A stretch of DNA of 64,000 nucleotides from a plasmid: NCBI RefSeq assembly GCF_988243305.1, contig NZ_OZ547138.1; one strand, given 5' to 3'. Made by a program: the position numbers. Of this stretch, positions 9,001 to 12,000 are shown in pieces (positions within the stretch are counted from its first letter, which is position 1; each line of letters opens with the position of its first letter).

Positions 9001-12000
9001 AAGTCAGCGGAGAGTGGCTGCCGTTGTGGCTGTCCCGGTATTTCAGTGTAACAGGTGATTGCTGTGATCTATGCCCCATTCGGCTTTCGGTAAACCTGAA
9101 TACCCCACATGAAGAATGCGTGACAGCATGTTTCTGCCGCTGCCGTTCAGGCTGCATTCGCGTCCGTGCGCGAGTATAAAACCTTCATCCCGGAATATCT
9201 CTTCCACTTCTGAAGATTCGAGGGATGCCGGATGAATTAATGAAAATGCCACCGGTCTGAGCATTCTGCCCGTGGTGGAAAAGGTGTCTCTGGTACTGTT
9301 CAGTTGCAGGATATGACGTTTACCTGTTTGCGCACGGGAAAGTGTCTCACTCAGCAGCTGGTCGCTCCATGCGCACGTGCCAATCTGCCATCCCAGACTC
9401 CTGCACGCGGCAAGAGCCGAGCGGAAGCGGTACAGGTCGTATAATGCTGCGTTATTGCCACTTTCCAGCAGTGATTTCAGGGTGTTTGCTACCGGTATGT
9501 CTGAATTGGTGGCCAGCAGTTTTCGCAGGGTAGTGAACTCTTCAGCCATTCCTCTGAACTCGCGCATCTGACGGGCAGTGTCAAGCCAGTTCAGCAGGTA
9601 ACGCCGGCGACGCCGTTCGTTGTTTATGTTGTCCGGGGCGGTGGAGAGTGCTTCGAGCATATTCTCCAGTAACAGAATGACAGGGTTTTCCTGGGATAGA
9701 ATGGTCATAAAGGCGTCCTGAAAAAATGCCCGACAGCCGCTCTCCGTACACCCTCAGGTGTCACCGGTGCCGGGCATTGTGGAAACAGAAGGGAAAAAAA
9801 TCCCGGCCATAAAGGCCGGGAAAAGTCGTCAAATTAAGACAGCAATTTTCATGTCAACGCTCCGTCATCAGATACCAGGTGCAGGAGCAGGGCGATCCTC
9901 GACTCCGGCAGAGGCTGTGCATCAAGCCGGAGGAGGTACTGGTAACGCGCTTTTGTCAGCCAGAGGGTGGAGGCAGCATCCAGCTCCTCCCTGGCTGCCG
10001 GATTGAGCGCAGGATCCGGGTACACTTTCATCAAAGACTGAACGATATCCTCCCTGACGGTTTTGATTTCACCGGCCATTTTCACGAAGTCCAGAAAGGC
10101 ACTGTGACGGCGAAGGTGAGTGAAGCTGTGGCTTTCGGGGTCTGCTTTCAGGAAAAAGTAACCGGGAAACACGGCGTGTATATGTCGACGGTAACCACAG
10201 ACTTTATCCGTGCGGCGGACCTTTTTCAGTATCAGGGGTGTCCAGGGAAGGACGTGTTGTTCGGAAAGCCAGGAAAAGAGATGTTCGCGGTTTTTGCCGG
10301 CAGGGATGTACTGTGCCAGATACCAGTTGCGTTGATGTAATTCACTGATATTCAAAATCCGGAACGCTCCGCGAAAATCGATCCCCGCAGGGGGGCTTCG
10401 ATGTTGTTGTGAACGGCGAATACATAAAGCATGTGTCGGAAACAGCGGCTGACCCACGTTCAGCCTGGCCTGCAGTTCTGACAGGCACATGATTTACGCA
10501 CTCTTGTAAGCCTTGTGGACGGTTTCGAGGCGGGCGAAAACCGACAACTCCTGCAAACAGGATTAATGGCTGAAAAATATATTACATAAGGATGTATCTG
10601 TGGCAAGAGTGAAGATAAGCAGTTGAATAGATCGTTATATTTGATAAGTCAGCATATTATTCTGATTTGTGTGCGGTGTCTGGAGGATTAGATCGTTTAA
10701 AAATTTTATGCGATCTCTTCTACTAAAAATGATGAAAAACACAGCATAAAAGATCGTTTGTGAAATTGTTCATTTTTTTGACAAAGTTCAAAAAAACGAC
10801 GCTTTTTAGGGGGTTAAAGAGGGCAACTGTAACCCTGAGAAATCGTGTCGGCTTTTCAAAGCGGTGGAAAAGGGGTATATTGCGGATCGTTATGCAGTGG
10901 CTTTTGGGATCCTCGCGGTTCGGAAAGCCAGAAAACGGCAGAATGCGCCATAAGGCATTCAGGATGTATGGCAGAAACGACGGCAGTTTGCCGGGGCCGG
11001 AAGGCTGAAAAAAGTTTCAGAAGGCCATAAAGGAAAACCCCCACTATCTTTCCTCGAACTTTGGCGGGCTCGTGAAAGATAGTAGGGGCGTTCACAGAAT
11101 ACGGGATAAGTATATATGAAACCGTACCAGAGATTCAACCCTGTGCAGTGTATAAATACACGGCACAATCGCTCCGCCATAAGCGACAGCTTGTGGCAGG
11201 TCTGAAGAATACTTCATATAACGCAGTACACTGGAGTCAGTTAGCACCCGAAGAGCAGATCCGTTTCTGGGAAGACTATGAAGCGGGAAGGGCGACCACT
11301 TTCCTGGTTGAACCGGAAAGGAAGCGCACGAAGCGCCGTCGCGGTGAGCACTCCACCAAACCCAAATGCGAAAATCCGTCCTGGTATCGTCCGGAGCGCT
11401 ATAAGGCGCTGAGCGGGCAGCTCGGGCACGCCTACAACCGTCTGGTGAAAAAGGACCCGGTGACCGGCGAGCAGAGCCTGCGCATGCACATGTCTCTGCA
11501 TCCTTTTTACGTGCAGAAACGAACGTATGCTGGTCGCAAATATGCTTTCCGTCCGGAAAAACAACGCCTCCTCGATACCGTCTGGCCGGTTCTGGTCAGC
11601 TTCAGTGATGCGGTCACACATACCGTAGGCATGAGTGTTTCCCGTCTGGCCAGAGAAATCAGCCCGAAAGACAGCAAGGGGAAGGTTATTCCGGAACTGG
11701 AAGTGACGGTCTCCCGCCTTTCCCGTTTGCTGGCCGAACAGGTACGTTTTGGTGTGCTGGGTGTTTCAGAGGAAACCCTGTGGGACCGTGAAACCCGCCA
11801 GCGTCTGCCACGTTACGTCTGGATAACACCGGCAGGCTGGCAGATGCTGGGCGTCGACATGGTGAAACTTCACGAACAGCAGCAGAAGCGGTTGCGTGAA
11901 AGTGAAATCCGCCAGCAACTCATCCGGGAAGGCGTACTGCGTGAGGATGAAGATATCTCCGTACATGCGGCCAGAAAACGCTGGTATCTGCAGCGCAGTC

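Follow-up and report, generated by a model that had tools for sequence, protein, structure and literature searches.

The plasmid segment analysed here (the window, meaning the whole stretch of 64,000 nt) very probably carries the replication-control leader of a conjugative IncK1 plasmid of the I-complex, operating in the manner described for repY-repZ of ColIb-P9, a reading to which we assign a probability of roughly 95%. A covariance-model scan matched positions 11030-11180 on the plus strand to the Rfam family RF01087 (PK-repZ), which Rfam describes as a pseudoknot of the regulatory region of the repZ gene, with 173.9 bits (E 1.8e-40; gathering score 44). The match covers the full model (1-150), and RF01087 was the sole Rfam family reaching threshold anywhere in the 64-kb window. 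Membership of two further families was considered and rejected, namely PK-repBA (RF01089; 31.1 bits, gathering score 45) and CopA (RF00042; minus strand 11030-11113, 29.2 bits, gathering score 60). The short motifs alone are not significant, TTGGCG being found 12 times on the plus strand of the window and CGCC being expected about once per 172 nt; the ensemble of elements, as judged by the PK-repZ score, the fold z-scores and the 7-mer expectation, is far beyond chance. The region 11030-11210 folds with z = -4.7, and none of 200 shuffles folded as well. Sequence elements, predicted folds, conservation, covariation and homology are established in this work, and nothing was found which counts against control of the PK-repZ type. 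The feature is a known one, with its own Rfam family and an extensive literature; since the control region has already been described and catalogued, it is to be regarded as ordinary.

Table 1. Features of the IncK1 replicon and its control region, in window coordinates.
Feature	Coordinates	Strand	Basis
Stem-loop I of the rep mRNA, antisense RNA target	11033..11093	+	Rfam PK-repZ structure line, MFE fold, inverted repeat
Antisense RNA gene (Inc RNA / RNAI), about 70 nt, putative	11030..11102	-	Minus-strand fold
Antisense promoter-like site, TTGAAT (11138-11133), 18 nt, TATACT (11114-11109)	11109..11138	-	Consensus scan
Leader ORF repY (repB in IncB plasmids), 29 codons, MKPYQRFNPVQCINTRHNRSAISDSLWQV, TGA 11203-11205	11116..11205	+	ATG 11116
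Predicted distal pseudoknot partner TCCGCCA, core CGCC 11175-11178	11173..11179	+	Complements loop 11062-11068 (TGGCGGG)
Stem-loop III, predicted inhibitory hairpin, CCGCCAUAAGC with GCUUGUGGC(A)GG	11174..11200	+	MFE and centroid fold
Replication initiator repZ/repA, GTG start, 343 aa	11193..12224	+	RefSeq CDS WP_000907882.1, same GTG
Post-rep region, presumably the CIS and ori segment of ColIb-P9, right limit approximate	12225..12760	+	Alignment

Structure prediction over 11030-11210 gave both stem-loop I and the hairpin at 11174-11200, and the two predicted stem-loops agree with the published model. The first-pass annotation had proposed control of the I-complex type with a TTGGCG-loop hairpin before the leader; this hairpin is present, every element proposed has its match in ColIb-P9 repY-repZ, and all of the features lie within 1-2 nt of where they had been placed. 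The main stem of stem-loop I (11038-11052/11074-11088) contains a single C.A mismatch at 11042/11084, the upper stem is of 3 bp (11055-57/11070-72), and the apical region 11058-11069 (ACUUUGGCGGGC) holds TTGGCG at 11061-11066. In an alignment of 10 I-complex plasmids TTGGCGG is invariant. A further alignment of 13 relatives was made with MAFFT and comprised IncK1, I1, B/O, K2/Z and L/M replicons together with three IncFII-like replicons, among them a Yersinia pYV plasmid; across these relatives compensatory changes on both sides were seen in 8 of the 15 pairs of stem-loop I. The GTG-masking hairpin, the antisense promoter-like site within the leader, and the assignment to IncK1 (pCT-type) and not IncI1 are additions to what the first-pass annotation had held.

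The antisense strand from 11102 to 11028 folds into one continuous hairpin of -35.4 kcal/mol (z = -6.8; 0 of 200 shuffles as good), and the predicted 3' end of the antisense RNA is formed by this hairpin followed by UUUUCCUU (11037-11030). The hairpin escaped a terminator scan on account of internal loops in its stem, and the minus-strand fold was relied on instead. The promoter-like site falls within the leader ORF and the ribosome-binding region belonging to it, and both of its hexamer regions are invariant in the 10-plasmid alignment; its sequence suggests a promoter role, in which case the 5' end of the antisense RNA would fall about 7 nt downstream of the -10 hexamer. In the IncK literature RNAI is an RNA of 61 nt which corresponds to window positions 11093-11033 (PMC10724649), and by analogy with IncK and ColIb-P9 the antisense strand is probably transcribed here as well. 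Two features at the base of the hairpin are specific to IncK1, namely the C.A mismatch and, after the stem, an extra G (11090). The mismatch weakens the target in the mRNA but is a G.U pair in the antisense RNA, which gives the antisense hairpin the greater stability. The mismatch and the extra G may make the stabilities of target and antisense RNA unequal and thereby give these plasmids of enterotoxigenic E. coli a different copy-number set-point or different kinetics, a suggestion which we put forward tentatively and consider rather unlikely.

RNAI is the incompatibility determinant of IncK1 and IncK2 plasmids, in which it differs at four SNPs and a single indel (PMC10724649). When the hairpin of the window was compared to that of the IncK2/Z plasmid pN16S065-2, SNPs were found at 11053, 11069, 11084 and 11091 together with one indel, the extra G at 11090. 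The positions T10, G25 and G41, which distinguish IncK1 from IncK2 (PMC10724649), are window positions 11084, 11069 and 11053, and the others are the published differences at the 5' end. Because the hairpin differs from IncK2/Z exactly as published for K1 versus K2, the replicon was assigned to IncK1. From 10960 to 11262 the window is base for base identical to the IncK1 plasmid pCT in the 10-plasmid alignment, and over 10700-12300 it shows 100% identity to five E. coli plasmids and 98.6% to pCT. The records of the identical plasmids are typed by MOB-suite as IncI-gamma/K1, MOBP and MPF_I, and the closest full matches are plasmids of enterotoxigenic E. coli, e.g., NZ_CP024226. Over its first 25 kb the window matches conjugative plasmids of the I-complex that have pil genes and a colicin Ia-related gene. 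A replicon of IncI1 (the ColIb-P9/R64 type) or IncB/O, which would then be incompatible with those groups, might be proposed from a leader, a rep start and a Rep protein nearly identical to ColIb-P9, but the hairpin that sets incompatibility has an upper stem and loop flanks unlike those of ColIb-P9 (CTCGAACTTTGGCGGGCTCGTG vs TTACGAACTTGGCGGAACGACG) and equals that of pCT, and together with the MOB-suite typing and the exact number of four SNPs and one indel from an IncK2 plasmid this makes such an assignment very improbable. The typing as IncK1, read from sequence, would predict the incompatibility behavior of the plasmid.

The Rep protein shows 94% identity over 343 aa to RepZ of ColIb-P9 and falls into the NCBIfam equivalog NF040977 (RepA_IncFII_LM) with 313 bits against a cutoff of 70, which is stronger evidence than its weak match to IncFII_repA, the only one in Pfam (E 1e-4). 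The leader peptide is identical in ColIb-P9, R64, and pCT, and no family was found for its 29 aa in NCBIfam; the conserved “AIS” of the leader peptides is a mere translation of GCC AUA AGC, i.e., of the RNA element. Among nine distinct I-complex plasmids the leader has 29 codons in eight and 31 in one. In all 12 I-complex sequences examined its stop starts 10 nt beyond the first base of the GTG and hence 8 nt past its last base; for the window, the 29-codon leader with its stop at 11203-11205, 8 nt beyond an in-frame GTG, had been described in the first-pass annotation and was confirmed by ORF reading. The same layout of a 29-codon leader overlapping a rep gene of 343 aa is found in pESBL (repY 36448-36537, repZ 36525-37556; PMC4288162).

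It had further been claimed that this GTG (11193-11195), which is in frame with the ORF 11148..12224, initiates a Rep of 343 aa and that the ORF start at 11148 is too long, and both claims hold. In the identical plasmid NZ_CP024226 the RefSeq repA begins at the base corresponding to window position 11193 and encodes 343 aa, and the annotation of pCT, ColIb-P9, R64, and the remaining relatives examined likewise has rep begin at the equivalent GTG. Alignment with ColIb-P9 showed the leader and the rep start to be identical and did not place the Rep start elsewhere. In pO26-CRL and four IncK2/Z plasmids a stop interrupts the rep frame 12-14 codons ahead of the conserved GTG and no start codon lies between them, and thus in these plasmids the GTG is the only possible start; the codon at 11148 is not conserved among the relatives. 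The control region of the window recurs in the IncK2/Z plasmids as far as the second codon of rep, after which a different and shorter IncFII-type rep of about 290 aa follows. This switch of rep after the second codon indicates a mosaic junction at the rep start and places the functional boundary at the GTG. The rep of ColIb-P9 and related plasmids is known to initiate at a GUG masked by secondary structure (PMC4705826, Asano's review). That Rep should instead be the full mechanical ORF of 358 aa from the GTG at 11148, the 29-codon ORF being no translated leader, has in its favor that 11148..12224 is the longest ORF in its frame and that the frame is open for 39 codons upstream of 11193, but the stops in the five relatives, the annotation of GTG 11193 by RefSeq in all plasmids examined, the end of the IncK2/Z control region and the GUG start stated in the literature leave it with hardly any likelihood. 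No promoter of the rep mRNA was located with confidence.

In the second predicted fold, stem-loop III, the GTG (11193-95) would be buried together with the weak SD region and the CGCC partner. Folded alone it yields -17.3 kcal/mol, 81% of its cells are paired across the relatives, and as a predicted structure it fits the masked GUG of the published model (PMC4705826). Pairing of the loop GGCG with a CGCC stretch near 11174 had been suggested in the first-pass annotation; the partner is conserved and the complementarity extends to 7 bp, while the position is to be corrected to 11175-11178. The predicted duplex between loop and partner consists of six Watson-Crick pairs and one G.U pair with -14.8 kcal/mol, and the 7-mer TCCGCCA is expected only 0.03 times by chance in 11030-11210. 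Across the 13 relatives the pairing is kept in 90.8% of cells, compared to 40-56% when the partners are slid by 1-3 columns, a formal count in which both IncL/M rows are taken as gaps or unpaired. In the 11 rows with aligned columns none of the five core pairs varies, and the seventh pair is AU in five relatives, GC in three, GU in one and unpaired in four. IncL/M plasmids, when read by eye, carry UUGGCCGG within the loop and CCGGCCAA ahead of the rep GTG, with GGCCGG/CCGGCC as a matched insertion on both strands; this insertion was read directly from the sequences, and the rows appear as gapped or unpaired in the count, because MAFFT misaligned the IncL/M distal partner. Covariation support for the pseudoknot comes from the seventh pair and the IncL/M insertion only, because the core pairs are invariant within the I-complex. 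Mutational work on an identical sequence has found the pseudoknot to be required (as summarised in PMC4705826). There is accordingly next to no chance that the target hairpin is a mere intrinsic terminator of antisense or upstream transcription, with no role in a pseudoknot and a coincidental CGCC match: the minus-strand hairpin followed by a U-run does resemble a terminator and CGCC by itself is frequent enough, but the complementarity is 7 nt long, the partner sits in the 5' arm of the hairpin hiding the rep start, it does not vary among the relatives of I-complex and IncFII-like type and in IncL/M changes together with the loop, and those published mutants show the need for the pseudoknot.

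Antisense transcription, pseudoknot formation and reinitiation coupling are read across from the literature on identical or near-identical sequences, and the control of the IncK1 leader would on this analogy proceed as follows. Stem-loop I of the rep mRNA would expose UUGGCG in its apical loop, while the GUG at which rep starts and its weak SD would be hidden in stem-loop III along with the CGCC tract. A ribosome translating the 29-codon leader would melt stem-loop III and terminate 10 nt beyond the first base of the GUG, at the UGA, and the CCGCCA so released could pair with UGGCGG of the loop in a long-range pseudoknot. This pseudoknot would hold the weak SD and the GUG open, such that the terminating ribosome could reinitiate and produce the initiator of 343 aa. 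The opposite strand would constitutively give rise to an antisense RNA of about 70 nt, with a promoter within the leader and with stem-loop I, in reverse, as its terminator. This RNA would kiss the same loop; it would block the pseudoknot first and, after extended pairing, also the translation of the leader, and Rep synthesis would for this reason drop as copy number rises. Both the competition between antisense RNA and pseudoknot and the leader-coupled GUG start have been described (PMC4705826).

Beyond the rep gene, 12222-13140 shows 98% mean column identity with ColIb-P9 and pCT, and 12225-12760 presumably corresponds to CIS and ori of ColIb-P9. Direct reading of the sequence revealed, at 12258-12275, a GC-rich hairpin with a T-run and, at 12391-12399, the DnaA box TTATCCACA. 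Since the post-rep region is 98% like that of ColIb-P9 and pCT and has a DnaA box, a complete replicon is present. The replicon is followed at 13134-13681 (+) by a yacA/yacB-type toxin-antitoxin pair of 89 and 93 aa with a 4-nt overlap and is preceded at 9849-10490 (-) by a NusG-family gene of 213 aa, and the identical plasmid NZ_CP024226 has both under the same annotation. Of the eight GATCGTT sites of the window, four lie within 10625-10891 (+), upstream of the rep control region. Copies of (A)GATCGTT are found at 10630, 10691, and 10752 with a spacing of exactly 61 nt, and a fourth GATCGTT is at 10885; each site includes a Dam GATC. The three copies with equal spacing are also present in pCT, NZ_CP024226, pEB1, CP077327, and an IncK2/Z plasmid. 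The intergenic region with this cluster is, in pESBL, the site of the 270-bp “Hft” locus, where transposon insertions raise transfer about 20-fold and copy number about 2-fold (PMC4288162).

The significance of these data is for annotation only, and the known translational control by pseudoknot versus antisense RNA is not extended here. What the annotation gains is a Rep start set at GTG 11193 (343 aa) and the addition of the leader of 29 codons, hitherto unannotated, and of the putative antisense RNA gene.

Of the known systems, CopA/CopT-tap-repA of IncFII (R1) resembles the window in that an antisense hairpin targets a leader upstream of a translationally coupled and related RepA; the R1 system is not known to use an activating pseudoknot. 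The repBA system of IncL/M (pMU604-type, RF01089) is built in the same way, in that its hairpin has UUGGC within the loop, the leader is short, a complementary tract lies distally just before a rep that starts with GTG, and the stop overlaps, but its leader has 16 codons and its pseudoknot is GGCCGG/CCGGCC. The IncI1 plasmids ColIb-P9 and R64 are identical to the window in the leader peptide, the CCGCCATAAGCGACAGCTTGTGGC and CCGCCAUAAGCGACAGCUUGUGGC blocks, the GUG start, the first rep codons and the overlap of stop and start, as well as in the UUGGCGG loop core and the lower stem, and their ori region is about 98% identical. The difference from ColIb-P9/R64 lies in the upper stem and loop flanks of stem-loop I, which are the part that determines incompatibility; compared to ColIb-P9 the window has one extra U before UUGGCG, an extra G (11090) and the C.A mismatch at 11042/11084, and upstream of about 11020 the sequences are unrelated. 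With pCT and other IncK1 plasmids, on the other hand, the window shares all of the IncK1-specific RNAI positions, and it differs from pCT only by scattered SNPs in rep and ori.
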